Source: a virus
Lineage: Duplodnaviria; Caudoviricetes
DNA: 53,836 nt
Strand: one strand, 5' to 3'
Virus record (IMG/VR): IMGVR_UViG_3300049479_000302
Coordinates: 1 to 53,836 of that record
Part shown: piece by piece, positions 3,178-45,219 of the stretch
Layout of the letters: each line of letters begins with the position of its first letter
Position numbering within the stretch: position 1 is the stretch's first letter
Position numbers and translations under genes: made by a program
Notes under the pieces: generated by a model
The model's input: the letters and a program-made list of their open reading frames with translations, nothing else
Told to the model about the DNA's origin: nothing
The model's database searches: none

Positions 3178-4128
3178 ATGGCAAGTTACTACCCCTCTCG
3201 CGGCAAAGTTCGGGCCCAAGTTAATATAAACGGGCATCGAGAATCGAAGACATTCGACACCAAAACTGAGGCCAAGGCATGGGCAACCAGGCGTGAATAT
3301 GAGTTGCAATCGGAAAATGGAAGTTCCCGGATCACGTTTCTTGAGCTGGCCAGGCTGTGGGTCAGGCGCTACCCCCAGCGCAAGCAAATTGACTGGGAAG
3401 CCAACCGGCTGGAATACCTGCTGGCCGGGTGGCTGGGTGAAGTCATGCTGCCAAAACTCAGCGGGGTGGATGTGGCCAAGTGGCGCGACGAACGGCTGGA
3501 AGTGAACGGCGCTGGCACGGTCGGGCGGGATTGGAACCTGCTGTCCTCAGTTTGTTCGCTGGCAGTCAAGGAAATGGGTATGTTGGCAAAGAACCCTTTC
3601 ACCGGCGTTAAGCGGCCAGAACAGCCACCGCCGCGCGACAGGCTGCACACGCCTAACGAAATGGAAAGCCTTGAGTTTTTTTCGCTTACCCGGCCATCGG
3701 GCTCAATCGCCCTGCAAATCTACAAATTCGCGTGCCAAACAGGCATGAGCGCGGGGGAATGCTGCGCCCTAAATTGGGATCAGGTGGATCTTCAGAAAAA
3801 GATTATTCTGTTGCCGCCATTCAAAACCCGGCCGGCACGACAAGTTCCACTATCGAAAGAGGCCTTGAGTCTGCTGGGCACGCCAAGCCACGGCAGCGTG
3901 TTCAACATGACCGCTGCGCGGCTCGATGCAAACTGGCGCAAATTATGCGCCGCCGCCGCCGTCGAAGACCTGAACTTTCACGACTCCCGACACTTTGCCG
4001 CGACTTGGCTAAGTAAGAAAATCGACTCTTTGGCCTTGGCCAAGATGCTGGGGCACCGTGATTTGCGGATGCTGCTGAATGTGTATTACCGGGAAGATGC
4101 GGCTAGCTTGGTGGACAAACTAGATTAA
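3178..4128 (+). CDS. int: Tyrosine recombinase/integrase (box I Arg replaced by Ser)
   Basis: Arm-binding N-terminus, TGMSAGE, FKT, FHDSRH, LGH, VYY. Confidence 0.9.
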   Translation: MASYYPSRGKVRAQVNINGHRESKTFDTKTEAKAWATRREYELQSENGSSRITFLELARLWVRRYPQRKQIDWEANRLEYLLAGWLGEVMLPKLSGVDVAKWRDERLEVNGAGTVGRDWNLLSSVCSLAVKEMGMLAKNPFTGVKRPEQPPPRDRLHTPNEMESLEFFSLTRPSGSIALQIYKFACQTGMSAGECCALNWDQVDLQKKIILLPPFKTRPARQVPLSKEALSLLGTPSHGSVFNMTAARLDANWRKLCAAAAVEDLNFHDSRHFAATWLSKKIDSLALAKMLGHRDLRMLLNVYYREDAASLVDKLD

Positions 4129-10200: not shown

Positions 10201-13200
10201 CCACTCATGAGCCAATGCCCCGGCACCATTCATCTTGGTCAGGTTAATAACAGCACGCTCGCGTTCATAATGCGCTTTTGCGCTACTCAGGCCTTGTCCT
10301 CGGGCACCAAATGCAAGTGCCAAATCACCATTCAAGCCAATCGCCTTTGGTGGAATTCCAACAACTTCAGCCAAGTCCAGAAGGCCATCGTAAGCGGCAT
10401 TCATAACTTCTTGGCGTTCGCTCTGGTTATTCCAGTTACCAAACTCCACACCGCGCAGGCCAAAAGTCTTCATGAAGTCACCGCCTTCAACATCGCCATT
10501 GCGTCGCGCCACGCCGGTGCGGTCAGTTCGATCTGGCGTTGGTAGGTTTGCTTCACCAAAGGTGGTGCTGGTTTCAAGAATGGATTGTGCATTTTTGGCC
10601 ATGTACTCCATGGCAGCCACTCGGCTTGGGAACACCTGGTCGACCACTTTCACGCGCTTGCGGTCTGTGACATCGCGCCAAATCTCGTAGGTGTACTCAC
10701 CGTCTGCACCTATGCTACCTGTCGGAATTGCGCGGTGCTTAAGCGAAACCGCAGCCAAAGGAATGGCATCGAGAGCGTCTTGCTCACTCGCAAAAGTATT
10801 CTGGCTGCCACCAACTTGCCGGGCTTGGCCCATCCAATCTTTGTTGCGGCTGTCACGCATAACCCAACGGCCAGCACCGTCACCCGCCACAATCTGGGAC
10901 ACCTCAAAGCGCCTTGCCCAAGTGGGGCGATCGTCCTTATTTTTCGTTGTGCTTGCACGGAAACCGGATGCAGCCAAATCCTTGCGCGCGCCACCTATCT
11001 TCTCGCCCAAGTCTGTGATGGCGACACTTGTTGCAGCTTGCGGTTGATTTTCCTCGCCAGTACCTGGGTCTACCTCACTTTCGTTTATCGGGATTTCGGT
11101 ACCAGAATCTTTCGTTTTGTCTTGGCCAGCATTATTCAACCCAAAAAACTTAACCCGGTTGCCCACCGCGCCCGCTGCTTTCAGCGCATCGCGAATCTGC
11201 TCAGGCGTTGCATCCTCGGCCACAATCACATCGTCGCCGGTTTCAAAATCCTGCGCCGGTTCATCCCCGATATAAATCACACCCTCTTTAACGGTCACCG
11301 GCTCCGCTGAATTGGGAGTCATCCCGACCGACAAAGCCATGGGGGTCTTTTCAACTGCACGCGCGGCCTTGCGCTGCTCCTTCTTCTCGGCCTGCCTTCT
11401 AATTTCCGCTTGTTCCTGCACCTCACGGGCAGACAATGCAGGCTGCGCTGGAAGCATTGTTTCAGCAGCAGGTGCAGTGGGTGGTACCGGAATAGCTGGC
11501 GCGGCTTCTGCCTGTGTTTGAAAAGCCGAACTCTCATCAAGCGTTGAGCTGGGAAACTCCCTAACCAAAGGCAGCAAGTCTGCAATCGGCGCATCCAGGC
11601 GAATCACCTTAACTGGCTCGCCTTTCTCCTTCTTGGCCAACCACTGGTGGTGTCCGTCCACCACGTATCCATCACCGGAAACAAGAATCGAACGGTCGCC
11701 GCCTTCAAACTGCTTCGCCTTTTCCACCTTCTCGCGAGAAAACTCCGCTTGGGTCGGCTTCAAGCTGTCAGCACTCACCTGTTCCTGCTGGTGGGCAACG
11801 CCCCTGGCATTCAGGAAGTTCACCATGGCACCGCGGTTCTCAGCCTTCACTTGCGGCATTTCGGCTCGTGGAACATTCAGCGTTCCACTGTCAGGGGTGA
11901 ACACCTCCCAGTCCTTATTGGCAGCCGCTGGCTGTGCTGGTTCAGGTGAAGCAACGTCACTTTGCGTGGTTTGGGGTACCGACATGGATGTCGGCACCAT
12001 CGCCGGGGCAAACGCCTCATACCGCTTCAGAAAACTGACCTCAGCCTCGGTAGGTTCTCCACCGCGCTCCGCAATGGCAGCCTGCATCGCCTTGATTTTC
12101 TCGGTAATCGGGTTCTTGCGCCGAAAACCTGATTCAACAACAATTCCAAGGGCGGGCGTAGTTACACCCTGAGCCCCCGCCCTTGCGGCACTTTCAAGGC
12201 GCGCCTGCACGGGGTCAGGGGTTAGCACCCGCTGATTGGCAATATTGGCTTTTGTGTCCAAGTCCTGCTCAATCTGCTCGCGCGTAATTTGACCGCGCTC
12301 AAACTGGCTCACCAGCATCTGGGCTGCAGGTGTATTTGTGTTGCGTTGCTGTTCAATGAATGTGTCAACCCGCGATACCGGTACCGGCTCAACGCGCTTC
12401 TTCCCTTGGGCAACCTGGTCATATTGAAAGGCACTCGGCTCGACGGCACCAACCTTCACCGATCCCCTCGAATTTGATACGCCATCAACAAGTATCGACT
12501 CACTCACCGGCGCTTCGATCTTTGCCTTGGGTGCGGGTACATTCAACTCTTCGGGTGTAGCAACCCGGTCATAGGGCTTGCCAGCTCCGTAACGTTCAAG
12601 AAATGAAGCCTCGCTTGGGGTGGCAACGCCACCACGAGCTGCGATGGCCAGCTGGATTTCGCCAATCTTTTTGTTGACCGGGTTGTTTGGTAGCCGGGCA
12701 CCCGCCGCAGCTGCACTTTCCAAGCGCTGTTGCACGGGGTCTGGTTGAACCTGTACACCCTGTGCTGCGCTTTCAATACGCGCGGTCGCTTCTTGATTGC
12801 CCTCACCCGGTACATACGCAGTTTTGGGTTGAACAACAATTCCGATGTCCTGTGCTGCAATTGCGGCCTCGATCGCCTCGTCGGCAGTCTTTGCCTTGCT
12901 TATCAACTCAACAGGCGAAGTGAGGGCAGAAACGCCACCACCCATCACGCCACCAGTTACCGCACCCATGGTGGCAGCACCGGCCACGCCTTTGAATGGA
13001 TCAATCTCCGGGTTGTACTCAGCTGCCGCCCTATTCCCCTCAAATTGCGTTACACCCTCCTCAACAGCCTCTTGTGCGCCTTCTGAAACAAAGCCCTTCA
13101 GTGCGCGCGCAGCAACTCCACCGGTATAACCACCAGCACCGGCCAGCAGCTTTTCCACACCTACTGCACCAAAAGCACCGCCAAGCAATGCAGGTAAAAC

Positions 13201-13944
13201 TGCAGCCTTCCTCGCCGCCTTTGTGGCCAATTCCTGCTTGGCTTCGTCTTCGCTTTTTCCTGCCTCAACCAGTTGGGCAAATTCCGGTACCGCCGAAATA
13301 ATCTCGATGGGCGTATCCATCACAGCATCGTATGCACTGCCTGCAGCGTCACCGCCGCCCATCGCGGCACCAGCCGTAACACCACCAGCACGGCCAGCAA
13401 GCTGAACGGCCTTTTGCCCGCCACCCAAAGCCCCCGCAATCAGGCCAGCGCCCTTAACCGCACCACCCGGTACAGCAAACGAACCGATTGCTTGCGATAC
13501 AGCAAGCAAGGGGCTATCCACCACGTAATCCAGCACCGCGCCAATTTCTTCGCCAGCATCAATGGCGTTGGCCAGCTTCGCCTGGAACTGAAGTTTGCTT
13601 GCCTTGACTTGATCGGATTGGCTTTCTTCACCGCTTTGGATGAATCCCTCAATCGCTTTTGAAACCCGATTGCCCGGGCTAATGAAATCGGAAACCGCCT
13701 TAACGCCACCGGCGGCAGCATTGGCCACCTCAATCACGTTGTCGTTGACTACACCGAAAGCACCGCGCGGGGCGTCTTTCTTTAGCCAGCTATCGGGAAG
13801 GCTCGGATCCCCGCCTTTGAACACATAACCATCAAGCTCTTGGCCCTGCTTTGGTTCGGCTCTGCGCCAATTATTTTTCTGTGAATAATCGCCGCCCTGG
13901 AATACATAGCCGTCAACGAGATCACCAGGTTTAATTTGTTGCAT
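4231..13944 (-). CDS. Giant polyvalent virion/ejection protein, 3237 aa (ParB-like, LPD5, LPD1, MuF-C-like, zincin metallopeptidase, LPD3, ART-PolyVal, LPD38-like modules)
   Basis: LKPTQ..VDGHHQW; DLGEKIGGARKD; RGVEFGNW..AHEWFHALD..HEMAARAF; HEALGH; FKRWFGD..VVYHGT..GIYFT..QIKSATGN; last gene of the virion operon. Confidence 0.85.
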   Translation of the reverse strand: MQQIKPGDLVDGYVFQGGDYSQKNNWRRAEPKQGQELDGYVFKGGDPSLPDSWLKKDAPRGAFGVVNDNVIEVANAAAGGVKAVSDFISPGNRVSKAIEGFIQSGEESQSDQVKASKLQFQAKLANAIDAGEEIGAVLDYVVDSPLLAVSQAIGSFAVPGGAVKGAGLIAGALGGGQKAVQLAGRAGGVTAGAAMGGGDAAGSAYDAVMDTPIEIISAVPEFAQLVEAGKSEDEAKQELATKAARKAAVLPALLGGAFGAVGVEKLLAGAGGYTGGVAARALKGFVSEGAQEAVEEGVTQFEGNRAAAEYNPEIDPFKGVAGAATMGAVTGGVMGGGVSALTSPVELISKAKTADEAIEAAIAAQDIGIVVQPKTAYVPGEGNQEATARIESAAQGVQVQPDPVQQRLESAAAAGARLPNNPVNKKIGEIQLAIAARGGVATPSEASFLERYGAGKPYDRVATPEELNVPAPKAKIEAPVSESILVDGVSNSRGSVKVGAVEPSAFQYDQVAQGKKRVEPVPVSRVDTFIEQQRNTNTPAAQMLVSQFERGQITREQIEQDLDTKANIANQRVLTPDPVQARLESAARAGAQGVTTPALGIVVESGFRRKNPITEKIKAMQAAIAERGGEPTEAEVSFLKRYEAFAPAMVPTSMSVPQTTQSDVASPEPAQPAAANKDWEVFTPDSGTLNVPRAEMPQVKAENRGAMVNFLNARGVAHQQEQVSADSLKPTQAEFSREKVEKAKQFEGGDRSILVSGDGYVVDGHHQWLAKKEKGEPVKVIRLDAPIADLLPLVREFPSSTLDESSAFQTQAEAAPAIPVPPTAPAAETMLPAQPALSAREVQEQAEIRRQAEKKEQRKAARAVEKTPMALSVGMTPNSAEPVTVKEGVIYIGDEPAQDFETGDDVIVAEDATPEQIRDALKAAGAVGNRVKFFGLNNAGQDKTKDSGTEIPINESEVDPGTGEENQPQAATSVAITDLGEKIGGARKDLAASGFRASTTKNKDDRPTWARRFEVSQIVAGDGAGRWVMRDSRNKDWMGQARQVGGSQNTFASEQDALDAIPLAAVSLKHRAIPTGSIGADGEYTYEIWRDVTDRKRVKVVDQVFPSRVAAMEYMAKNAQSILETSTTFGEANLPTPDRTDRTGVARRNGDVEGGDFMKTFGLRGVEFGNWNNQSERQEVMNAAYDGLLDLAEVVGIPPKAIGLNGDLALAFGARGQGLSSAKAHYERERAVINLTKMNGAGALAHEWFHALDHYFGRQDGKAASQWKINKDGTRSFDIRGAENDMASGGFSRRDSGVREELRDAYKSLMETMFSKAEQYVEDTTKADQFVARSREDVAQRLDRLRADLSEQKDPRYYKRNNKPASAEQLAEFDTIAKQIVDGESLEVAFVQTPDSKNALGGRWSNEALEKLSAIYKAVRGRSGFDSGKQSGVMDRLRDEMNRYSQRLQMLAQAQAGQKKTKRVPTEFAMDARQLDQGRGQDYWTTPHEMAARAFQGYVEDKIAQQGARSPFLNYAPENFGILTPWGAKRPFPYGEERKAINAAIAKFISVLKTKETDTGVAMFSRSKGFAEKVDMVLDGTLPESEVVGVVRDAPVLTALGMPELPLATTGDRIAKMHYDHGMTRAEIAALEQEVQNPVMVFESDSIPGAKVVLTSMWRDGAPVIAAVRPNVRLKRFEVNLLASAYGKDRIEQLGRWNDAGLLRYFDKQKASAWATIGGVQFPWMVQLQQRLPANVIGPADVVKPTFQRGGGADNSAVVELQALADGITKGWANAPEVVVLDSLSNPATPSAVRRLNEVQKSQGASGEPRAFFYQGKVWLVAGQLKDKKSAAEALFHEALGHYGLRGVFGKALNPVLNDLAKRRPELMQAKAKEYGLDLESNNGRLTAAEEVLAELAETRPEISFVRMAVAALRTWLRNNVGFFDGLKLTNDEIVRNFIVPARDWVRKGRDGGPSIYRGRAISGYPPATAAASTFEALRPTSETIPGSARSVDKQAGSDKPEPSFSRAAITESTEFKRWFGDWKLAQKAIMPRTASGLEDAKNIAQEFVGNEIVNRATKLVGMVSGNNLRKMASQKAGDKSTSMMDHALAIANLDKLFENAVLDHSHPDSKGEPTIRAIHRYIAPMFGVDGGLRAVKLTVKETTGPKEPNPIYTVEAMEIESPPSVLSRANPNETGIRPQAGMNQSVLDMLDEVNRVSKVVDAEGKPIVVYHGTRPGNDITQFETPNNRDGIYFTPDASYAQGFTNDLRGDTGEAGSIYPVYLSVKNPYVVRADDIESDAAQNFLYRGLDRAKLEKQEYDGAMLYLDGELDQVIAFDSKQIKSATGNNGAFDPSNPDIRFSRTADKERASFKVDEPGRLDNVIYKLQDKNVDLKRVSQAITKQTGELEDTINAYQKESLYHGKAAKQSKDFLDKQLKPLLDDMRMRKVNLQEFENYLWNRHAPERNEQIAKVNDRFPDGGSGIKTEDAMRYMKGLPEDKRRHFEALAKRVDQITRDNMQMMVDSGLEKQSTIDSMKGAYKHYVPLLRGESSSYNGRGQGYSIRGATTKRALGSDKPVENIISALADQREKIISRAQKAEVGRALMGLALENPQDDFWFVFDPLLNKDEGQRTRLRDQLETMGLDADLAEEISRQPYTEEMRPNGKAIRRPNRKLTELPNALAVRLNGEDKFIVFNQENERARRMGESLSNLDAPRLEGALGVVGQATRYFASINTQYNPIFGIVNLVRDTQGALLNLTSTKIAGKQAQVVKGILPAIKAIYQISRANRSGGIVNGEWADLYERFQNTGGQTGFRDMFSTPKERTEKQLKEALDPTALQKVYSNTAKPLFDWLSDYNETLENGVRLSAFKAALDSGLSDEQAASLAKELTVNFNRKGQIGTQMGAVYAFFNASTQGTARMLEALKGPKGKQIIAGGMLLGAAQTILLGMAGFDDEDPPEFVREKNLIFPTGGGKYITIPMPLGLHVLPNVGRIITEQLMGRTQKGVTESMAGLFKVMIDSFNPVGSSTLMQTIAPTVLDPMVALSENTDFTGRNIAREDFNPSKPTPGYTRTKANSIESLVAVSRALNYLSGGSDYTKGLISPTPDQLEYVISQLTGGVGREISKIVQVGETSVTGEELPPYKVPLFGRFYGNTTSQSSQAGQFYENLRAMNDHKLEIKGRLEDGLSTMDYIKDNPEAMIFRQAESVERRIQELGRTKRKLKENGAGPESIKQVEEAITRVMSNFNERVKQMRGVEAG

Positions 13945-25289: not shown

Positions 25290-26354
25290 TTACAGCGTCA
25301 AGTCGGAAACACCGCACTCAATGCGGGCCATCCATGCATCGTTCAAGCGAACGGTGGCTGTCCACATCGAGCCGCCTACATAGCCAAACCGACCTAGTGG
25401 GTTGGCATGGTTTTTTTCTCCGCTTCGAATGATGGTTGGAACAACAGCCTTCTTGCCTTTCAGCGAAACCTTGCCCCATGCGTCCTGGCCAACAACAATG
25501 AATGGGTACACATCAACGTTGGCACCACCAACAGACAGACAGCCGTTAAGCGTTCCGGAGCCAGCGGCCAAGAAAGGTTCCAGCAGTGGCGATGCAATGA
25601 AGCGCAAGCCCTCACAAGAGCCAAACTCGTGCTCATGCACTGGCTTGAATGAACCGTAGTCCTCAACATCCTTGAACTTGGGCAGGTCTTGGCAATCGGC
25701 CATGGCATCGGTGTGAACAAACACCAGGTACGATGGTTTGATTGGGGTTGAGCCAAAATTCACACTTGAAGAGATTCGGCTAGTCACTGGCTTGGCACGG
25801 TTTGCCGCCATGGTGCGAATCGCCTTGCGAATTGCAGGCAGGCTGATCTTGGTGTTCACTGCACTGCGCGAAGATCCATTGGCGTAGATCACAGTGGAAC
25901 CTGCTTTCAACACGCCGTAATCCACCATTTCACTGATCTCGCCCATCACCTCGCCGGTCTGCTGCACCATGTCATCAGTGATGTTGTCTTCGTACATCAA
26001 CTCTGCTTTGGATGTCAGCTTGAACAGCACCCCGTATTCTTGCAAAGTCACAGAGACATTCTGGTAATCAATTGTGTTTGGTGTAGGAGTCGTGCCTTCA
26101 GCCAAAATGAAGTTACCGGCGTCAATGTTGGGTGTGCCAGCGTAGCGCTGAGTACCCTCAATTGCTGTTCCGGCAGCTACTGCACCAAAAGGCAAGCAAC
26201 GACGAAACACAACCGTGTCAGTCTCTTTTTCTGGGTGTTCTTTGTGTGTACCGAAGTCACCAAGAACCGTGATGTTGGAAGCATGTTTCAACATGCCCTG
26301 TGCCGCGCGGATTAAATTCCGACTTCTTACTGTACCGTAACCCTGAGTTGCCAT
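25290..26354 (-). CDS. Major capsid protein, N4-gp56 family
   Basis: TVVFRR, LAEGTTP, L.EYG, E.GS.EG.RFI, DVYP..V.GQDAW, NPLG..GYVG motifs. Confidence 0.9.
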   Translation of the reverse strand: MATQGYGTVRSRNLIRAAQGMLKHASNITVLGDFGTHKEHPEKETDTVVFRRCLPFGAVAAGTAIEGTQRYAGTPNIDAGNFILAEGTTPTPNTIDYQNVSVTLQEYGVLFKLTSKAELMYEDNITDDMVQQTGEVMGEISEMVDYGVLKAGSTVIYANGSSRSAVNTKISLPAIRKAIRTMAANRAKPVTSRISSSVNFGSTPIKPSYLVFVHTDAMADCQDLPKFKDVEDYGSFKPVHEHEFGSCEGLRFIASPLLEPFLAAGSGTLNGCLSVGGANVDVYPFIVVGQDAWGKVSLKGKKAVVPTIIRSGEKNHANPLGRFGYVGGSMWTATVRLNDAWMARIECGVSDLTL

Positions 26355-26366
26355 TTTCCTGTTTCC

Positions 26367-27272
26367 TTATTGGGAAGCACGCTCTAAGCGGCGGGCCTCT
26401 TGATTCCAAATCTCGTCTTCCGTCAATTCCTCATCCCCTTTGGGTGGAGGCGCAGACGGACCCTTTCGTGTAGCGGCCATGTCAAGCCTTGACTGGCGCT
26501 CCTGTTCAATTGCTGTTTGGTTTGCGGAAAATGCGCGCTTTCGAGATTCCTCAAAAAGGTCCAACATCTTGATCGCATCGCGGGATTTGTCTGAATCAGC
26601 CAGCGCCTTGATCTCAGCGGGTTGAGTATTCATCCAAGCCGCAAAATCAGGGGTGTTGATCGTTTCAAGCCAACCCTCGTGTTTCTCTTCAATGCGCTCA
26701 ATCTGGATAGCTCGGATCTTTTGATCGAACTCCTGCTGCGCCTTAACAAGCTGCTCTCCGAACAACCCCTGAATTTGATTTGGGTCAATCGCCCGTGGTA
26801 GGGCAAGTGAACCCAGTCGCTCATCCATGGCCTCTGCCCACTCGGGAAAATCCTCTTTGAGTTTTTCCCATTTCTCAGACTTCTTTGCGGCGGCCTCAAT
26901 GGCTTTTTCGGTCGGCGCATCGTCGGTCTTCAGGCGTGCCTGTTTGGCAACATCAAGATCACGTTGAATTGAAGCCAGTCGGCCATTCGACGCTTTCAGG
27001 TCGTTCTGCAGCTTGTCAACCAAACCAAGCTTTTCCTTAACCACCTCGGGTAAACCTGCATACGGATCAACAACCTCCTTGCTGTCTTCAGGTTGTGCAA
27101 CCGGCTGCTTGTTTGCCTGACCAGGCTTGTTCGCCTGGTCACTCAACTCTGTCGGCTGTTCTTCCTGCTTTGAATCAACTTGGCCCAAATCAACGGGTGA
27201 CTCCTCAGCCGCCATCTCGTCCCATGCCGCATTCACTTGCTCGTCAGTTAATTGTTCTGTACTCACATCCAC
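26367..27272 (-). CDS. Capsid scaffolding protein
   Basis: Acidic, coiled-coil, immediately upstream of capsid gene. Confidence 0.75.
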   Translation of the reverse strand: MDVSTEQLTDEQVNAAWDEMAAEESPVDLGQVDSKQEEQPTELSDQANKPGQANKQPVAQPEDSKEVVDPYAGLPEVVKEKLGLVDKLQNDLKASNGRLASIQRDLDVAKQARLKTDDAPTEKAIEAAAKKSEKWEKLKEDFPEWAEAMDERLGSLALPRAIDPNQIQGLFGEQLVKAQQEFDQKIRAIQIERIEEKHEGWLETINTPDFAAWMNTQPAEIKALADSDKSRDAIKMLDLFEESRKRAFSANQTAIEQERQSRLDMAATRKGPSAPPPKGDEELTEDEIWNQEARRLERASQ

Positions 27273-27991: not shown

Positions 27992-28468
27992 TTACTCTGC
28001 AACCTGGGCAATCAACGCCCTACACTGCGCAGTCACTTCGTCGGCTTGTTCAACGAGTCGTCGAAGATCTTCTGTAGTTCGTTCTGGAAGTACAATGGTG
28101 GCGGCATCGGCCTCAACAACACCGGGTTCACCTGGCGTGGTGGCGGGCACAGGGGCTGGATCACAGACTGACCGGGGGAGGCGCAAGCCGCCAGCGCGAG
28201 ACAGCTCACGATACTTGCGCTCGATTTCAGACTTCTCATCAATGTATTCACTGATCACCTCTTCGTTAAGTTTGCGCTGTTCTTCCAGCTTCGTTTTGTA
28301 ATCCTCGTGGGCTTTGTCCAGCGCTTCAATGTGATCGGCCTGCAGCTTCAGTTTTTCATTAGATGCAGCGGCGCTTTCAACTTCCATGCCTGCAATAAAG
28401 CCAACAAGCAGCAGCGCCACCGGAATGGCCATGAACAAAATTGCAGTTAACCAAGTCTTTGGATACAT
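27992..28468 (-). CDS. i-spanin (Rz-like)
   Basis: N-terminal TM helix plus coiled coil; coupled to endolysin stop. Confidence 0.8.
   Translation of the reverse strand: MYPKTWLTAILFMAIPVALLLVGFIAGMEVESAAASNEKLKLQADHIEALDKAHEDYKTKLEEQRKLNEEVISEYIDEKSEIERKYRELSRAGGLRLPRSVCDPAPVPATTPGEPGVVEADAATIVLPERTTEDLRRLVEQADEVTAQCRALIAQVAE
28033..28251 (-). CDS. o-spanin (Rz1-like lipoprotein) embedded in the i-spanin gene
   Basis: Lipobox LAAC, Pro-rich, alternate frame within Rz. Confidence 0.8.
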   Translation of the reverse strand: MNTLMRSLKSSASIVSCLALAACASPGQSVIQPLCPPPRQVNPVLLRPMPPPLYFQNELQKIFDDSLNKPTK

Positions 28469-28974
28469 CACAGTTGCCCCATACAGGTTGAATGTCTCTC
28501 TTGTTGGCGGGTCCATACCCCGGCGCAACGCCTGTTGCCGGGGGTTGAACAGTCGTACCTAGCAACGAACCTGTAAAGCAAGTACGCCCGACAAGACCCC
28601 TCATAATCTCCGGCGTTCGCCCTACGAACGATGCTCGACTTGCAAAGCGTTGGAACCCCGTACTGGTAAGCAAAATCGACCATCAGGTCGTATTCAGCCT
28701 GTGTCAGTGGCGCGGTCACACACGCTTTGATCCCCAGCTCGTCTTTTTGAATATGCGCCAGGCTGCGCTTGATTGCCGGTACCGGGGTGATGGTGTCACC
28801 CATCTGCACCGGCGTGCCATCATCGCGAAACGTGGAGCCAAAGCCCACGGTGGGACGGTCACCCTTAACAGGAATAATCGCCTTCTCGGTCCACCCCTCG
28901 TGTGTCACCAAGCCAGCAAAAGCAGCGGCACTTAGTGAAAGCGCAGCCACGGCAATTCGTGCTTTCGTGCTCAT
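28468..28974 (-). CDS. SAR endolysin, GH24 lysozyme
   Basis: Ala-rich SAR helix, HEG...D.PTVGFG, YQYG, GV.TR. Confidence 0.85.
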   Translation of the reverse strand: MSTKARIAVAALSLSAAAFAGLVTHEGWTEKAIIPVKGDRPTVGFGSTFRDDGTPVQMGDTITPVPAIKRSLAHIQKDELGIKACVTAPLTQAEYDLMVDFAYQYGVPTLCKSSIVRRANAGDYEGSCRAYLLYRFVARYDCSTPGNRRCAGVWTRQQERHSTCMGQL

Positions 28975-29201
28975 AACCCGCACCTGTCACGTAAGGCAGC
29001 AAGGCGGGCCTCACTTTCAAGCTGCTCACGTTTATCGCGCTTGCGCTGGAAATAGATGTTTGCGGCAAAGCCTCCAAGGGCAATCATCACACCAAACCAC
29101 CCAATCCAATTGACCGAAGCCAACCAACCCACAACGCCTGTTATTGCCCCAGCCTCGGTTGTTCTGTTGGCCACCTGCACAGCTGTATTATCTAAACTCA
29201 T
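28971..29201 (-). CDS. Holin/pinholin
   Basis: 76 aa, hydrophobic segments and basic C-terminus, upstream of endolysin. Confidence 0.75.
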   Translation of the reverse strand: MSLDNTAVQVANRTTEAGAITGVVGWLASVNWIGWFGVMIALGGFAANIYFQRKRDKREQLESEARLAALRDRCGL

Positions 29202-38773: not shown

Positions 38774-38964
38774 GCAAAAACTCCGGCGTGAGGCTTCTTT
38801 TTTTGTAAAACTCGCACTTTTTTGCAACCCAATTGCTCAAGTTCATGCGTGTACGCCTCAGCCTGCTCTGCCGTATTGGCGATTCGCGATTCGGTGTAGG
38901 GGTATTTGATACCGGTCACAAGGACTGGGGAAAAGTCGCCCGCCTGGGTTGTTTCGGCTTTCAT
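38770..38964 (-). CDS. Small hypothetical protein
   Basis: Coupled at both ends; GGAGG RBS. Confidence 0.6.
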   Translation of the reverse strand: MKAETTQAGDFSPVLVTGIKYPYTESRIANTAEQAEAYTHELEQLGCKKVRVLQKKKPHAGVFA

Positions 38965-40595
38965 AGAATGCCTCCCGATTTGGCAGATGCAACCATAATC
39001 ACCACCGACACACTGGTACCAGAAAATTCGTTATCAAAAGTCTTCGGAAATACGCACTCAAGCCCGGGCAACAAGTCTTTGCCCTTGGCACTGGCAGGCA
39101 GAATTGCAACAAGCCTTCCGGTCGGCGCAAGCAAGCAAGCAGCAGCCTCCAGGTGGGCCATCCAGCGCCCTTGGTCAAATGGTGGGTTCATTACGATGCG
39201 GTCGAATCGTGAAGTTGTCTTGCCAGCAAATGCAATAAAGTCTTCCTGAACCGTGTCATAACCTTTCGCCTTCAAAACACCGCAGCGAAGCCCGGAAACC
39301 TCAATACATAGCGTTTTTTCTTTGGGCATATGGTCAGCCAGCCCGCCGGTACCGGCACTTGGCTCAAGGCAGGCGTGATGGTCTTCAATCTCAGCCAGAT
39401 CTATGGCAGCCTCGGCCACACTTTCAGGCGTTGGGTAAAACTGATGTGATTTCTGATCCGGCACACAGCCATTGGTCACAATGGTGTCGATTACTGGCAT
39501 GGGGTCGTAATCAAATTGCCACCACCCCTCTTTTGTTTTCACGCCGCCAATCGACTCAAGAATGTTGCGAGCCTCTGCGGCAATGTGCTTATCCGATCCC
39601 AAATCACCAGACACTGTGTTTGCAACAAACTCATATCGCGAGGAACTCACCCAATCACCAAGCTCAACCATCCGCTTCGCTTGCTTCAGATTTGACAGTG
39701 CATTCAGAACCGCGAACGGTAACGGCCTTTGAATCAACTCAATTTCTTTTGGGTTTTTCTTGGGCCTACGGCGAAACTCCGAGGGAATTGCAAGTGGGTA
39801 AATTGAAGCCAGTACCGAATTCAATCGCCACGCCATATTGGGATGCACCTCAATGTGTGCTGTGCCCTTTTTGTAAAGGCGAATTTTGAGAGAGTTCCCG
39901 TCAACCTGAACCCACTCGCCCCAGCGTCCCTTCAGCCCGTAAATAAGGTGCTCACTGGCCCGGTAATTTGGATCATCGCGACCCATAAACTTAGCGACCA
40001 CCGAACGCAGGTCGTTAATCAAGCCAGATACACTGAAATTGGTGTGGCCGTATTCGTTCAACACCCTGGCTACGATCATGCGCTTACCAAATGCCGCCGG
40101 ACTATTTGTTACATGCTCACCAGACAAGCCACGGAAAATGCCATCAACCCTTTCGGCCAAGAACATATGGCGCTTATCAAGCAAATCAGACAAAGTAGAC
40201 CGCACGGTTTCATACTCAAAATCCGGGCACTTTTTTTCTTGGATAAGGTTGTTCCATTCATCCCGGCGCTTTTGCGGCATCACGTTTAGAACATCGGTCA
40301 TGTGCATGGCTTTTGACCAGTAGGCGCTGTTCAGTGCAGCAACAGCCCCCTTAACCTCAAAAAGATGCGCCACGCCCGGAACGCCATGCCTGCCACGCTC
40401 CGAATTACCCTCCAAGAAATAGCCTATTGCCCCGGCAGTCTCGCCAGTTACCATAGCCCCCACCTCTTGAATGCGGGCCAACATGGCTTGATATTGAGCC
40501 ACAAGGCCATCAATAAGATCAGTCGATGCAGGGGCAAAAAATTGATCACCATCACCGCCCGCAAAAACACATTGCAAATCCTGTCTTGCACTCAT
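38961..40595 (-). CDS. DUF4942-domain SAM-dependent DNA methyltransferase
   Basis: QFYPTP, LEPSAGTG (motif I), MNPPF (motif IV). Confidence 0.85.
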   Translation of the reverse strand: MSARQDLQCVFAGGDGDQFFAPASTDLIDGLVAQYQAMLARIQEVGAMVTGETAGAIGYFLEGNSERGRHGVPGVAHLFEVKGAVAALNSAYWSKAMHMTDVLNVMPQKRRDEWNNLIQEKKCPDFEYETVRSTLSDLLDKRHMFLAERVDGIFRGLSGEHVTNSPAAFGKRMIVARVLNEYGHTNFSVSGLINDLRSVVAKFMGRDDPNYRASEHLIYGLKGRWGEWVQVDGNSLKIRLYKKGTAHIEVHPNMAWRLNSVLASIYPLAIPSEFRRRPKKNPKEIELIQRPLPFAVLNALSNLKQAKRMVELGDWVSSSRYEFVANTVSGDLGSDKHIAAEARNILESIGGVKTKEGWWQFDYDPMPVIDTIVTNGCVPDQKSHQFYPTPESVAEAAIDLAEIEDHHACLEPSAGTGGLADHMPKEKTLCIEVSGLRCGVLKAKGYDTVQEDFIAFAGKTTSRFDRIVMNPPFDQGRWMAHLEAAACLLAPTGRLVAILPASAKGKDLLPGLECVFPKTFDNEFSGTSVSVVIMVASAKSGGIL

Positions 40596-40599
40596 CGAG

Positions 40600-40974
40600 T
40601 CACTCCCCCTGCGCCATGATCAGCTGGCGGGCAATTTCCGGGTTGGCCATGGCCCTCGATGCAAAGTGTGTGGCGCACTCAAAAGACTTGGCATCCACAC
40701 AAACATCATCCTGGTTCACCAACTTCAACCCCAGGTGCGCAAACAGTTCGCACATAGGCCCCAACTGGTCGCTTTTCATGCGGGAAACCGTTGATTCGGC
40801 CACATTTAACAATTCAGCCAGAACTGTTTGTATCCCGGGCTCATGCATTCGCCGCAACACCAAGGAATGCATCTTTCTCGCGCTTTCATTTAAACCCGTA
40901 GAAACTTCGGGTTTACCACTACTGCCACGCGAAAACATTGGAGCGTTTATGCCCCCCGAATCATCACTCATCAA
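40600..40974 (-). CDS. cII: CII-like transcriptional regulator
   Basis: Q..LAELLNVAESTVSRMK...LGLKLV; downstream of cro; start uncertain. Confidence 0.7.
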   Translation of the reverse strand: MMSDDSGGINAPMFSRGSSGKPEVSTGLNESARKMHSLVLRRMHEPGIQTVLAELLNVAESTVSRMKSDQLGPMCELFAHLGLKLVNQDDVCVDAKSFECATHFASRAMANPEIARQLIMAQGE

Positions 40975-41014
40975 CTTTCACCCTTTGGTATTGAAGCCAT
41001 GGCGCTCAAAAACT

Positions 41015-41236
41015 TCACTGTTGGTCAACAACACTTGCCTCTTGCGGCGCACCTTCGGCGTTCACCAACTCTGTATGCAATTGCTGAATTCGATTACCGC
41101 GTTCGAAGCTAGTGCTTTTGTGAACGCCGGTTCGCAACCGAAAAACGATGGACTGAGATGTACCGATGCGAGAACCTATTTCCTCATCGGTCATGCCGGT
41201 GGCGTGGATTTCTCGGAGTAGCTGTTTGATGTTCAT
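41015..41236 (-). CDS. cro: Cro-like HTH repressor
   Basis: GMTDEEIGSRIGTSQSIVFRL HTH; divergent from cI. Confidence 0.8.
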   Translation of the reverse strand: MNIKQLLREIHATGMTDEEIGSRIGTSQSIVFRLRTGVHKSTSFERGNRIQQLHTELVNAEGAPQEASVVDQQ

Positions 41237-41249
41237 TTTTCCATCGATT

Positions 41250-41314
41250 ATACGCAAACGTATATATGCTAATACGTTCGCGTGTTTGACGCAAGCAATA
41301 CGCAGGCGTATTTT
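41250..41314. promoter_or_regulatory. OR-like switch: three operators and divergent promoters
   Basis: ATACG-N4-CGTAT at 41250 and 41298, variant ATACG-N4-CGTGT at 41272; TTGACG-17-TATTTT ends 6 nt before the cI ATG; minus-strand TATAAT near 41247-41252. Confidence 0.85.
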
Positions 41315-41320
41315 TCTGCC

Positions 41321-42049
41321 ATGAGCCTATCTACCAACCTTAAGAAACTGATGGAACGCCGAAAATTGACTGCAAACGCCCTGGCTGAGCTGTCTGGTGT
41401 GCCTCAACCGACAATCAGCAGGATGCTGAACGGCGACCATAAAGATCCGCGAAACGCAACCTTAGAAAAAATTGCCATCGTATTTGGCTGCTCAACTGAA
41501 TCGCTGAGGAAAGGAAATTTTGATGAAATAGCTGGATTTTCCGCACTTGATGTTCCTTTGAATCTGAATATTCCACAGATGGCACTCCATGAGTTAAACG
41601 CGGAATACCACACTGGCCCCACGTCGAAGGTCGCTATACCAGTGCTGGCCGCGGTGCCCTCAATGGGGAGTGGTGAGTTGCTGTCCTATGACGGCGACCA
41701 GATTATTGATGTCATGCCGGTCAGCCGGGAATGGATCGAGCGCAACATCAAATGCAAGCCGGACAACTTGCGCGTCATAACCGGGTCGGGTGACAGCATG
41801 CACCCCACCTTTTGCAACGGCGACTTGCTGTTGGTAGATGTATCAAAAGCCAAAGTCGATGTGGATGGGGTGTATGTGCTCAGCGCCCATGATCGGCTTT
41901 TTATTAAACGCGTGCGGCAGCGCCTGGATGGCCAGTTTGAGGTGTCCAGCGACAACGCAACAGTGAAGACCGTGGATGTGCTCAACGGCGAACACGAGAT
42001 CAAGGTCCATGGTCGAGTGGTTTGGGCGTGGAATGGCAGGGCTTTGTGA
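41321..42049 (+). CDS. cI: CI repressor (XRE HTH plus S24 autopeptidase)
   Basis: LAELSGVPQPTISRM HTH, GDSM.P, FIKR; ATG at 41321. Confidence 0.92.
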   Translation: MSLSTNLKKLMERRKLTANALAELSGVPQPTISRMLNGDHKDPRNATLEKIAIVFGCSTESLRKGNFDEIAGFSALDVPLNLNIPQMALHELNAEYHTGPTSKVAIPVLAAVPSMGSGELLSYDGDQIIDVMPVSREWIERNIKCKPDNLRVITGSGDSMHPTFCNGDLLLVDVSKAKVDVDGVYVLSAHDRLFIKRVRQRLDGQFEVSSDNATVKTVDVLNGEHEIKVHGRVVWAWNGRAL

Positions 42050-42115
42050 AGGTGATGGGGCTAGTTATGCAGCGCATCAAGATTTCTAAATTTTAATCGG
42101 CGCGGATCAAAATAA

Positions 42116-42574
42116 ATGGGACTGCTAAATAGGCTTTTTGGATACCGATGGAGTCTTTACATAGTTAAAGACAAGAAAATCGCATACGCGATGCATGAAA
42201 ACTCAGTTCTAGCGATGGTTGGTTATGTGATGCCGTTCTTCTCCAATGGTGCCAAACCACTGACACCATGGAATATCTATTTAAACTTTAACCATAAGAA
42301 TTTGGTTCTAAGATTAGAGCCAGAACACTTCACTCAAAACGGTGAAAATGTAACGAACTCTTTAATTAACAAAATTAAAGAGTTCGATCCCGGCTGGATG
42401 GTGAAAGGCGGCGAGCCTATATTTGAAGAAGCTGCGACAAAGAGGCAACTTAAAATCACTGACTATCCAAGTGGGCCGGCCGATATTCAGGCGATGCTCG
42501 ATAATTTTAATAAGCCACGTGAAACTACTTTTTTCTCTGTAATGGAAGAAGTATTCGGTGAAAGCAGCAACTGA
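42116..42574 (+). CDS. AT-rich accessory hypothetical protein
   Basis: 152-aa ORF downstream of cI. Confidence 0.7.
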   Translation: MGLLNRLFGYRWSLYIVKDKKIAYAMHENSVLAMVGYVMPFFSNGAKPLTPWNIYLNFNHKNLVLRLEPEHFTQNGENVTNSLINKIKEFDPGWMVKGGEPIFEEAATKRQLKITDYPSGPADIQAMLDNFNKPRETTFFSVMEEVFGESSN

Positions 42575-42598
42575 TTGAAATTTTCAACATTTGAAAGC

Positions 42599-42901
42599 AT
42601 GAAAAAAATCATCTTCCCAGGAATTTTTTTAATCGGATTGTCTGGATGCTTCCCACAAACTGAAGCCGAATGTTTGATGGATGTATCAAAAAACGCCCAG
42701 TCAGACAAGGCGGCCATTCTTGGAAAAATGGCTTGCGATAAACAGTTTTCCAGCGCACCCAAGTCAGAAACGCTGGATTCGACGCAACAATCCTCGCTGC
42801 CAACCCCCAAACCTGGTGATGTTATGGATGGCTATGTTTTCAAAGGCGGGGACCCTTCAAAAAAAGAAGCCTGGGAAAATCTAACTAGTAATAAGGACTA
42901 A
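42599..42901 (+). CDS. Lipoprotein carrying a copy of the giant virion protein N-terminal motif; candidate superinfection exclusion protein
   Basis: MKK, hydrophobic core, lipobox LSGC; C-terminal KPGDVMDGYVFKGGDPSKKEAW. Confidence 0.8.
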   Translation: MKKIIFPGIFLIGLSGCFPQTEAECLMDVSKNAQSDKAAILGKMACDKQFSSAPKSETLDSTQQSSLPTPKPGDVMDGYVFKGGDPSKKEAWENLTSNKD

Positions 42902-42903
42902 TA

Positions 42904-43335
42904 ATGCAAGTTTTTAAAGCGCAAATTGGTATTTGTGGGCCTCTGTTTATTGTTGGATTTGGACAGCCAACCGATACGCACACAGGAATTGTTGTTGATG
43001 GCTTCATCATCACACCCGATGAGTTGCCGACAGCGATTTATTTAAGAGCCGAATCCAAATCAAAGGCTCTCCCGGTAGATCTGGATTTAGAGCAACTGAT
43101 TATGCATGCGGCAGAAGAGAAAGCCAGGGATTGGATTGACGCTCACAAAAGCAAGCTGACGGACTTTTTAATATCAAAATTGGAATTCTCTGCGGTAGAA
43201 AAGACCGAACAACTTTTTTTAACATATAAAGGTTACTTTGATCCGCTAGATAAAATAGACCTTAATCAAGTCTCATTTAGCACCATGGAAATGATAGAAG
43301 GGCTGAAAAAATACCCTCCAATAAAATTGAATTGA
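42904..43335 (+). CDS. AT-rich accessory hypothetical protein
   Basis: AAGGA RBS, 143 aa. Confidence 0.7.
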   Translation: MQVFKAQIGICGPLFIVGFGQPTDTHTGIVVDGFIITPDELPTAIYLRAESKSKALPVDLDLEQLIMHAAEEKARDWIDAHKSKLTDFLISKLEFSAVEKTEQLFLTYKGYFDPLDKIDLNQVSFSTMEMIEGLKKYPPIKLN

Positions 43336-43351
43336 TTGATTAAGTAAAAAA

Positions 43352-44329
43352 ATGGACGAAACAAAACAAGATCAGGAAATCAAATTTAACCCTGCTACGC
43401 ACGATATTTATGTTTATGCAGGTGAAATAAACACTTCAGGCTACGAAATGTTGTCCAATTTGGCTGGTAATCCAGCCAACAAATACGCATTGTTAATACT
43501 ATTTACCCCCGGTGGGGACCCGCACGCTGGATTTAGAATCGCCAGGGCTTTGCAGTGCTACTACAATCATTTTGACATTCTGCTGCCACGGATTTGCAAA
43601 AGCGCTGGTTCACTGATAACGATTGGCGCAAAATCCATTTACATGGATGACATGAGCGAGCTTGGCCCGCTTGATGTGCAACTTAAAAAGAAGGATGAAA
43701 TATTTGGTCTTACATCTGGATTGGACATTGCTCACACTCTGAATCATTTGCAGAATCAAGCTATGTCTTCTTTTAGGAATAGCTTGCTTGAGCTAAGCGG
43801 GCAAGCCGGGCTGTCAACCAAGATGGCTGCCGATATTGCATCAAACCTTACAAGTGGACTGTTTCAGCCGATAATGGCTCAGGTTGACCCAATGAAGCTG
43901 TCCGAAACACAAAGAGCGCTCGAAATAGCCCAAGCTTATGGAACAAGATTGAATGAGAAGCCACTCAACTTACGAGCAGGCGGGCTAGAGGCGTTGATCA
44001 CAGGCTACCCCTCACATGGTTTTGTAATTGATAGAAAGGAAGCGAAAAGGCTGTTTGTTCGCGTTTCGAAACCCGAAGGTATTCTGCGAGAATATAGTGA
44101 CGCTTTTCGGTCGGCCTTTCAACAAGAAACGTACAAATCATTGCCAACCGTAATTAGAATACCAGCTGAAGATAGAGGACAACAAGATGATCAAACCCCA
44201 CCAGATTCCACCAGAACTCAAGCAGGCAATGATGAATCAAAGCCTAAAGAGTCGGGAATTATCGATCAAGCACCAGCGCAGCTTCAATCAAATACCTCAG
44301 CCACCCGAAAACCTGGAAAGAAACCTTAA
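43352..44329 (+). CDS. SDH/DUF114-family Clp-fold serine protease
   Basis: TPGG, KSAGSL (nucleophile Ser), SELGPLDVQ, YPSHGF. Confidence 0.85.
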   Translation: MDETKQDQEIKFNPATHDIYVYAGEINTSGYEMLSNLAGNPANKYALLILFTPGGDPHAGFRIARALQCYYNHFDILLPRICKSAGSLITIGAKSIYMDDMSELGPLDVQLKKKDEIFGLTSGLDIAHTLNHLQNQAMSSFRNSLLELSGQAGLSTKMAADIASNLTSGLFQPIMAQVDPMKLSETQRALEIAQAYGTRLNEKPLNLRAGGLEALITGYPSHGFVIDRKEAKRLFVRVSKPEGILREYSDAFRSAFQQETYKSLPTVIRIPAEDRGQQDDQTPPDSTRTQAGNDESKPKESGIIDQAPAQLQSNTSATRKPGKKP

Positions 44330-44366
44330 AGGTCTTGAGTCCTTAATAAAGTCCAAAATCGCTTAA
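44187..44366 (+). CDS. 59-aa ORF overlapping the protease 3' end in +1 frame
   Basis: AGAGGA RBS then ATG; MIKPHQIPPELKQ...LIKSKIA; stop just before terminator. Confidence 0.5.
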   Translation: MIKPHQIPPELKQAMMNQSLKSRELSIKHQRSFNQIPQPPENLERNLKGLESLIKSKIA

Positions 44367-44369
44367 AGT

Positions 44370-44394
44370 AACCCGCCTCTTGGCGGGTTTTATT
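44370..44394. terminator. Intrinsic terminator, probably bidirectional
   Basis: AACCCGCC-TCTT-GGCGGGTT then TTATT. Confidence 0.8.
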
Positions 44395-44398
44395 ACGC

Positions 44399-44512
44399 TT
44401 AAGCCCTCCTCCTCCACCTGAAAAAAGCTTTGATTGCGCCCAGAAATGCAGGCAAAAGCAACGCCAGCACCTCTGGATCAAGGGCAATAGATGCCGTCAG
44501 TTCAATAACCAC
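44399..44512 (-). CDS. 37-aa hydrophobic peptide, Fst/Ldr-like type I toxin candidate
   Basis: GAGGAG RBS, 6 nt, GTG; MVIELTASIALDPEVLALLLPAFLGAIKAFFRWRRRA. Confidence 0.65.
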   Translation of the reverse strand: MVIELTASIALDPEVLALLLPAFLGAIKAFFRWRRRA

Positions 44513-44572: not shown

Positions 44573-44666
44573 TCTAAAGCGCCAGCCGAAGCTTATTCGG
44601 TAGATCGATCACTGGGGCTACCTCAGTGCCGATCGGGATGAACCGCCCTTGTGGCGGTTTTTCTTT
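44573..44666 (+). ncRNA. Putative ~95-nt structured small RNA, candidate antitoxin
   Basis: Own promoter, hairpins CCGAA/TTCGG and CGATC..CACTG/CAGTG..GATCG, terminator AACCGCC/GGCGGTT plus T-run. Confidence 0.6.
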
Positions 44667-45177: not shown

Positions 45178-45219
45178 ATACGAATACGTATTGACTTATT
45201 TAATACGTTTTCGTATATT
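45178..45219 (+). promoter_or_regulatory. OL/PL-like early promoter with two operators
   Basis: TTGACT-17-TATATT flanked and overlapped by ATACG-AATA-CGTAT and ATACG-TTTT-CGTAT. Confidence 0.85.

Follow-up and report, generated by a model that had tools for sequence, protein, structure and literature searches.

A small gene downstream of the cI-type repressor gene of a temperate phage encodes a predicted lipoprotein whose C-terminus repeats a short module (henceforth called the tag) that stands twice at the start of the giant polyvalent virion protein of the same phage. The best reading of this arrangement, which is favoured tentatively and at a little less than an even chance, is that the lipoprotein would exclude superinfecting kin phages by mimicry of their ejection machinery. 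The phage genome is one whole virus record of 53,836 bases (IMG/VR record IMGVR_UViG_3300049479_000302, Duplodnaviria, Caudoviricetes; one linear contig, 93% complete according to CheckV), and this entire stretch is henceforth called the window.

The lipoprotein (P0001; coordinates of the features are collected in Table 1) starts with MKK and a hydrophobic stretch that runs into the lipobox LSGC, and carries two further Cys residues. For the lipoprotein signal, the pattern [LVI][ASTVI][GAS]C after a basic n-region and a hydrophobic h-region was applied by eye and by regular expression, and was found as MKKIIFPGIFLIGLSGC in the window and as LSAGC and FIAGC in the homologues P0003 and P0286 (see below), respectively; from these signals, the product of 42599-42901 is predicted to be an exported lipoprotein. 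The residue at position +2 of the lipobox Cys is F or S and not D, which under the E. coli +2 rule (a rule that may not be this host's) would direct the protein to the outer membrane. In BLASTP of the lipoprotein against the giant protein, the two giant copies were matched at E = 6e-8 and 7e-8; eleven residues (DGYVFKGGDPS) are identical to copy 2 and KPGD is identical to copy 1, with equal spacing of the Trp residues. When the whole 53,836-base record was translated in all six frames, the tag profile (42 positions, from 13 copies) matched exactly three times (E = 7e-23, 2e-18, and 8e-16), and a regular expression scan of the window recovered the same three copies only. At the DNA level, the lipoprotein tag is identical to copy 1 at 47/66 positions (71%) and to copy 2 at 40/66 (61%), with the same codon used at 11 of 15 and 7 of 14 identical residues, respectively, and with the runs AAACCTGGTGAT and TTCAAAGGCGGGGA common to both sides of the comparison. 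Given these many synonymous differences, the likeness is old and was kept at the protein level, and does not stem from a recent duplication. The initial annotation of the window had described the layout of the lipoprotein (LSGC, two more Cys, Ser/Thr/Pro/Gln linker, terminal motif), the two tandem motif copies at the start of the giant, the shared residues with their Trp spacing, and traces of likeness in the DNA; the translation of 42599-42901, the BLASTP and profile scans of the 3237-aa (amino acid) open reading frame (ORF) at 4231-13944 on the minus strand, and the comparisons above bear out all of these.

Searched against 1.84 billion cluster representatives, the same profile matched 5,922 protein clusters at E ≤ 1e-3, of which 197 reach E ≤ 1e-10, with a consensus of roughly 25 residues that approximates P-G-D-x-x-D-G-Y-x-F-K-G-G-D-P-x5-W. 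Position classes were counted on the 144 new proteins within the best 150 profile matches: 72/144 carry a single tag at the extreme C-terminal end of proteins of 200–1300 aa, 37/144 carry it within their first residues, nearly always doubled, in proteins of 500–5700 aa, 30/144 are small (many of them fragments), and 5/144 place it otherwise or gave no match to the regular expression. The bodies of the C-terminally tagged proteins are unrelated to each other (mean column identity of 7% over 80 proteins), the tag being the sole conserved block; by Pfam, 77 of these 80 proteins are without a family and 2 have peptidoglycan hydrolase domains. The tag itself matched no Pfam family, LPD families included, and its profile matched no PDB sequence (best E 0.09). 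The doubled tag was modelled by AlphaFold as two small three-stranded beta units at a mean predicted local distance difference test score (pLDDT) of 78.5, each tag being aromatic-rich with a pLDDT of 80–89, and for this tandem model no match in the PDB was obtained with Foldseek and a best Z of 2.2 with VIA-align against 48,161 chains. The string ‘FKGGDP’ was not found in the literature searched. That the tag is an undescribed, very common, and strongly conserved module is largely established.

With regard to genomic place, tag matches were retrieved by tblastn from 24 GenBank phage records (F116-like and 8P-like phages, EBPR podovirus 2, a Bradyrhizobium phage, and oyster-associated phages) and from none of the N4-like or T7-like records. 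Among these, the tag terminates p58 of the Pseudomonas phage F116, directly before the giant p59, and 8P_022, whose immediate successor is the 5146-aa ‘structural protein’ 8P_023. H66 and phiC725A, like F116 phages of P. aeruginosa PAO1, likewise have it at the C-terminal end of p58. Further proteins that finish with the tag are the ‘peptidoglycan hydrolase’ gp28 of EBPR podovirus 2, a late-module protein of the Bradyrhizobium phage, and, in an oyster-associated phage, an ORF adjoining an ‘internal virion protein.’ The ejection-protein status of the tag carriers rests on their position and on annotations of this kind (8P_023, the neighbouring ‘internal virion protein,’ and gp28). Furthermore, 80 IMG/VR loci were picked by a degenerate DNA pattern, and 78 ORFs at these loci are C-terminally tagged; 58 of the 78 stand directly before an ORF of at least 400 aa (435–2504 aa, median 574), the remaining ones standing before an ORF that runs off the locus (8), at the locus end (9), or before a short complete ORF (3). 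At 39 loci of bacterial genomes, 27 of 34 C-terminally tagged ORFs precede an ORF of at least 400 aa (median 716 aa, maximum 3331); in both sets, the tagged ORFs not followed in this way are mostly found where the locus ends. Named hosts of the tagged loci are mostly Proteobacteria of several classes and almost all diderm. Since the tag is found either at a C-terminus before a large ORF or doubled at the N-terminus of a giant, it denotes the border of a mid-size late protein with the large or giant protein that follows, and may be on either side of this border.

This is the topological place of the ejectosome junctions of N4 and T7 (the C-terminal end before the giant, or the N-terminal end of the giant). 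According to the portions of the sources available, the C-terminus of gp51 and the N-terminal domain of gp50 are proposed to form an inner-membrane complex in N4 (PMC13434306), and the N-terminal ‘molecular tape’ of T7 gp16 binds C-terminal regions of gp15 in the periplasmic tunnel (PMC8954989). The N4 giant is an RNA polymerase, whereas the giant of the window is a polyvalent effector protein, and the N4-like and T7-like records lack the tag itself, as stated above. By analogy with these junctions, we infer that the tag may act where tunnel protein and giant meet, the site at which the ejectosome’s inner-membrane part is assembled; its fixed place there would offer a concrete handle on the assembly of poorly understood delivery machines.

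The giant of the window (P0002) contains the Pfam domains LPD38, ART-PolyVal, MuF_C, LPD1, and LPD3, all above cut-offs, and its gene is located among the late genes, after the tail genes. Its single polypeptide, which is encoded among late genes, unites several effector domains that are unrelated to one another, and by the five domains named it belongs to the polyvalent proteins as defined by Iyer et al. 2017. In the available part of that article, this class is predicted to be packaged and injected with the DNA (PMC5512222). LPD and effector domains are shared with the proteins of that class, whereas the double N-terminal tag lies outside any Pfam family. Residues 126-552, which follow the tags and are Gly/Ala-rich (window 12289-13569, minus strand), match the N-terminal part of a PHROG annotated as ‘virion RNA polymerase’ (E = 1.9e-8) and also phrog_18222; ‘DarB-like antirestriction’ is among the further PHROG matches of the giant. 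From the match to the RNA polymerase PHROG, the front end of the giant resembles the injection domain of N4-type giants, the rest being effector domains. Residues 126-552 look like an injection domain common to giants with quite different cargo. Using tblastn with the first 400 aa of the giant against phages, no match was obtained.

The tags differ in the residue between Y and F. Of 209 other tags, 150 have Arg and 15 have Val at this position; Val is the residue of each of the three lipoprotein tags and of the two tags that P0002 and its 86%-identical relative P0141 each carry. This position assigns the lipoprotein tag to the Val subtype, which is rare and is also that of the giant of its own lineage. 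Homologues of the lipoprotein were found in only two other lineages among 5.8 billion proteins, namely P0003 (167 aa) and P0004 (full-length P0286, 168 aa). The three lineages are 55–65% identical, the N-domain being the best-conserved part; the lipobox, both extra Cys, the near-identical N-domain, and the tag hallmarks G, G-Y, F, G-G, P, and W are common to all of them, and the linker varies. By its conservation across these lineages, the lipoprotein gene must be regarded as real and under selection.

Both P0003 and P0004 run about 65 residues past the tag, and this stretch reproduces the best-conserved block (henceforth called motif B) of a scaffold family represented in the window by P0018. 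This protein is encoded in the gene order portal, lysis genes, P0018, major head protein, and has 133 homologues, one of which is called ‘Scaffolding protein’ by its source. In BLASTP, 38/68 residues of P0004 are identical to P0018 (E = 4e-22), and tblastn of P0004 against the window matched three places, i.e., the lipoprotein gene, the scaffold core at 26532-26735 (E = 6e-20), and the start of the giant gene. Both homologues retain the conserved positions of the scaffold family (W, F, W, Q, L, S, D, A, M, L, D, and F). Within this phage clade, the scaffolds share 80–85% identity with each other and 55–60% with the motif B copies; identity of the copies to more distant scaffolds is 35–48%, and hence the copies came from this clade. 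With the scaffold-core copy and the Val-subtype tag combined, the lipoprotein family looks assembled from late genes of its own phage. The lipoprotein of the window is without motif B, and no remnant of it was detected downstream. In the AlphaFold model of P0004, the motif B domain is helical (pLDDT 94–98), whereas the model of the tag region is poor, probably owing to the alignment of scaffold sequences across this region; the P0004 model had no match in the PDB with Foldseek at E ≤ 0.001. A complex prediction of the scaffold P0018 with the first 70 residues of the giant, which was run without controls, scored 0.00 and counts neither way.

Relatives of the lipoprotein N-domain were found in none of the IMG/VR, GTDB-genome, and JGI-metagenome scans, and the scaffold protein, when used alone, had no match in IMG/VR. 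The lipoprotein matched 0 Pfam and 0 PADLOC families, its sole PHROG match being to the tag-bearing C-terminal end of phrog_11341 (E = 0.006). Two candidate relationships of P0286 were rejected, i.e., a likeness to InvH-type lipoproteins in the ESM Atlas (best score 0.82, below usable level) and a match to Cmr7 in PADLOC (E = 0.006, chance level). Four small membrane-anchored tag proteins of metagenomic origin were noted among the best 144 (P0178 with a lipobox and two tags; P0142, P0163, and P0167 with hydrophobic segments), which may be independent inventions of a tethered tag; scans with P0178 and P0163 returned the tag match alone or nothing.

The initial annotation had placed the lipoprotein gene downstream of cI in a slot like that of lambda rexAB, and the gene order (cI, orf152, lipoprotein, orf143, protease, terminator) agrees with this placement. 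By this position, the lipoprotein gene may be expressed in lysogens. A blastn search of 40500-44500 against GenBank phages gave no match. Upstream of the lipoprotein gene of the P0004 lineage, a gene for a secreted Cys-rich protein of 123 aa stands in place of orf152 (P0284, P0289), and one gene call reads the Cys-rich protein and the lipoprotein as a fusion; given this different upstream gene, the neighbours of the lipoprotein are not a fixed system. The SDH/ClpP-like protease at the end of the operon has no signal peptide and no PADLOC match.

If the lipoprotein excludes kin phages by mimicry, it would hold in the lysogen a tethered copy of the tag in the periplasm on a flexible linker. There, the copy would be in competition with the tags that kin phages bring in, be it for the partner of the tag or by co-assembly. 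Such competition would interfere with how the cell-proximal part of the ejectosome is assembled or anchored and would stall the delivery of DNA and effectors. In the homologues, the scaffold-core copy could be a second arm that captures incoming tagged proteins, a step that presupposes loading of tagged proteins into procapsids by the scaffold core. Of the interpretation first put forward in the initial annotation, the parts that stand are a module typical of ejection-type proteins and the cI slot, to which the own-giant subtype, the scaffold core in the homologues, and the position corresponding to the ejectosome junctions of N4 and T7 are added in its favour; the motif proved to be generic, and co-occurrence of tagged lipoproteins and ejection proteins is not general. 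Mimicry is plausible as an interpretation, and is narrower than first proposed, being specific to this clade.

Several points weigh against exclusion by mimicry. The lipoprotein family comprises three known lineages only, and the window is its one complete genome; tagged lipoprotein and tagged giant co-occur there. Each of five whole bacterial genomes with a tagged prophage protein (5/5) holds exactly one tag, and no tagged lipoprotein was found at any of the loci from IMG/VR (80), from genomes (39), or from metagenomes (10, retrieved with a Val-subtype pattern and holding 4 N-terminal doubles and 6 C-terminal singles). Whether related prophages carry the motif both in ejection proteins and in cI-linked lipoproteins had been named as a check; with a single tag in 5/5 genomes, this is not generally the case. 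A generic motif without co-occurrence had been named as the outcome that would speak against the proposal: the motif is generic (5,922 clusters), and co-occurrence was found in the window and not in the 5 genomes and the loci named above. The tethered tag is a rare invention and not a standard partner of tagged ejection proteins. Furthermore, the lipoprotein matches no known defence or exclusion family in PADLOC, PHROG, or Pfam, and a role in virion incorporation would likewise explain the terminal position of the tag. The scaffold-core copy is the least explained feature and fits a simple decoy poorly, because scaffolding proteins are normally cytoplasmic and absent from virions. The window’s own lipoprotein does without this copy, and motif B of P0003 is 55% identical to a scaffold that is probably on the same contig vs. 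55–60% to others.

Alternatively, the tag could be a generic envelope-binding unit (for peptidoglycan, the membrane surface, or a conserved envelope protein) that ejection proteins and the lipoprotein use independently; the activity would then reside in the Cys-containing N-domain, e.g., receptor masking of the kind exerted by Cor or Llp, or a change of the envelope, and the tag would only position it. We consider this rather unlikely. A near-identical tag on unrelated bodies (7% mean column identity, 80 proteins) fits a conserved, possibly host-side partner, the named hosts belong to several classes and are almost all diderm, and peptidoglycan hydrolase domains occur in 2/80 C-terminally tagged proteins and in EBPR gp28. 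The strong conservation of the N-domain within the lipoprotein family points in the same direction, as does the tag being predicted by AlphaFold as a small aromatic-rich beta unit (pLDDT 80–89). However, the tag has no match to a known binding fold or family, and envelope binding leaves unexplained both the copying of the scaffold core in the homologues and the own-giant subtype of the tag, the latter of which common descent alone could account for.

An origin without mimicry, in which the tag is a capsid-loading signal, motif B is the docking core of the scaffold, and the lipoprotein arose by illegitimate recombination of the phage’s own late genes, with the window’s version possibly decaying, appears clearly unlikely, even if it draws on several of the same observations: the two copied pieces derive from morphogenesis genes within the same lineage of phages, the strictly terminal position of the tag is typical of targeting signals, the family is tiny, and the window’s protein has lost motif B. 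The P22 scaffolding protein is needed for the loading of ejection proteins. Selection is, however, argued for by the conservation of the lipobox, both Cys, and all tag hallmarks over three lineages that are 55–65% identical, and by the conserved positions of the scaffold family kept in motif B; moreover, the synonymous differences mark the copies as old and not as fresh debris, and what a capsid-loading signal would serve for in the periplasm is not obvious. That the lipoprotein is an outer-membrane spanin (Rz1-type) or has another lysis or late function, as its small size and Pro-containing linker might suggest, is extremely improbable and was rejected, since the phage has its own Rz/Rz1-like pair in a separate lysis cassette about 14 kb away, with an embedded Rz1-like ORF, and the lipoprotein gene is located in the cI operon on the strand opposite to the late genes.

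Exclusion by mimicry of the ejection machinery has a functional parallel in P22 SieA, which, like the role proposed for the lipoprotein, is prophage-expressed, kin-specific, and blocks delivery by P22-like podoviruses at the ejection-protein conduit; in the available part of the report, escape mutations are described in C-terminal portions of ejection proteins gp16 and gp20 (PMC10883804). In contrast to SieA, to which it has no sequence relation, the lipoprotein carries a copy of the ejection protein’s own tag, and its role is predicted only. T4 Imm, a phage-encoded exclusion protein, binds the channel-forming ejected tape measure protein according to the accessible text of a preprint (bioRxiv 10.64898/2026.03.06.709160). 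Unlike the lipoprotein, Imm is a myovirus membrane protein, binds its target rather than resembling it, and is unrelated in sequence. Llp of T5, Cor of phi80 and N15, and Ltp are small phage or prophage lipoproteins that stop the entry of kin phages, as is proposed here, whereas none of them matches the window’s lipoprotein in sequence or family, and Llp and Cor act on the receptor, namely FhuA. To our knowledge, none of the three copies a module of the phage’s own ejected proteins. For Ltp of TP-J34, involvement of this lipoprotein in exclusion is stated in the part of the source available (PMC3952083). No described exclusion protein that copies an ejection-protein module was found in the literature as far as titles and the openings of abstracts disclose.

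If mimicry is true, the lipoprotein would be the first exclusion factor that acts by resemblance to the ejection machinery and not by binding a receptor or channel protein, it would represent a new logic of phage-phage competition, and it would be an example of gene birth from a genome’s own structural genes. If mimicry fails, the tag is still a useful new domain and the lipoprotein an ordinary moron. A bolder generalisation would be that temperate podovirus-like phages build an exclusion factor from their own virion parts (the tethered tag and, in some lineages, the scaffold core) that poisons the delivery channel of their kin by mimicry, and that thousands of phage lineages share in the tag a universal, drug-like target on their ejectosomes; this is possible, if on the doubtful side.

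The window represents nearly all of the genome of a temperate phage; its layout is podovirus-like and its capsid gene of the N4 type. Among public sequencing runs, the only one that covers it in full is a freshwater sediment metagenome, which may be its source, and no RNA run was among the matches listed. In addition to the features in Table 1, it encodes small and large terminase subunits, a portal protein, tail and fibre genes, and the recombination genes RecT and SbcC-like. Upstream of the giant, proteins of 286, 158, and 366 aa are encoded. Between the head genes and the giant gene, there is no ORF of the size of a long tape measure, from which the podovirus-like layout was deduced. The capsid protein is at most 41% identical to those of the closest GenBank phages.

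Table 1. Features of the 53,836-base window, in order of position
Feature	Position	Strand	Remarks
Integrase	3178-4128		
Giant polyvalent virion protein P0002, 3237 aa	4231-13944	(-)	Two N-terminal tags, Gly/Ala-rich region, then effector domains
Giant tag copy 2, KQGQELDGYVFKGGDPSLPDSW	13786-13851	(-)	In tandem with copy 1
Giant tag copy 1, KPGDLVDGYVFQGGDYSQKNNW	13867-13932	(-)	Start of the giant protein
Major head protein, N4-gp56-type	25290-26354	(-)	
Scaffolding-type protein P0018, 301 aa	26367-27272	(-)	Directly upstream of the major head protein gene
Motif B of the scaffold	26532-26735	(-)	Invariant family positions; copied in P0003/P0004, not in the window’s lipoprotein
Rz-like i-spanin	27992-28528	(-)	Lysis cassette
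Embedded Pro-rich Rz1-like lipoprotein ORF	28033-28251	(-)	Within the Rz-like gene
Endolysin with N-terminal hydrophobic stretch	28468-28983	(-)	
Holin-like ORF, 76 aa	28971-29201	(-)	
Cro-like helix-turn-helix (HTH) gene	41015-41257	(-)	Divergent from cI; phrog_6831, phrog_6223
cI-type repressor, HTH_3 and Peptidase_S24	41282-42049	(+)	phrog_4; first gene of the lipoprotein’s operon
orf152	42116-42574	(+)	Separates cI from the lipoprotein gene; without a match in Pfam, PHROG, or PADLOC
Lipoprotein gene P0001, 100 aa	42599-42901	(+)	Signal peptide, lipobox LSGC with Cys17, Cys-containing N-domain 17-50, S/T/P/Q linker, C-terminal tag
Lipoprotein tag copy, KPGDVMDGYVFKGGDPSKKEAW	42809-42874	(+)	22-residue C-terminal motif
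orf143	42904-43335	(+)	Starts 2 bases past the lipoprotein stop, AAGGA just upstream; no Pfam, PHROG, or PADLOC match
SDH/ClpP-like serine protease	43352-44329	(+)	PF01972, phrog_21683; last operon gene
Terminator-like hairpin with T-run	44640-44660	(+)	First such site, ends the cI operon; consensus scan only
Best promoter-like site	45191-45219		10/12 matches, before the recombination genes; consensus scan only

The lysis cassette (27992-29201, minus strand) is located between the portal and scaffolding genes, which is an unusual place. A DNA methyltransferase (phrog_6263; window 38961-40595, minus strand) contains a domain of about 120 aa at residues 382-504 that recurs within PHROGs of giant polyvalent proteins, e.g., phrog_11358 and phrog_10691.

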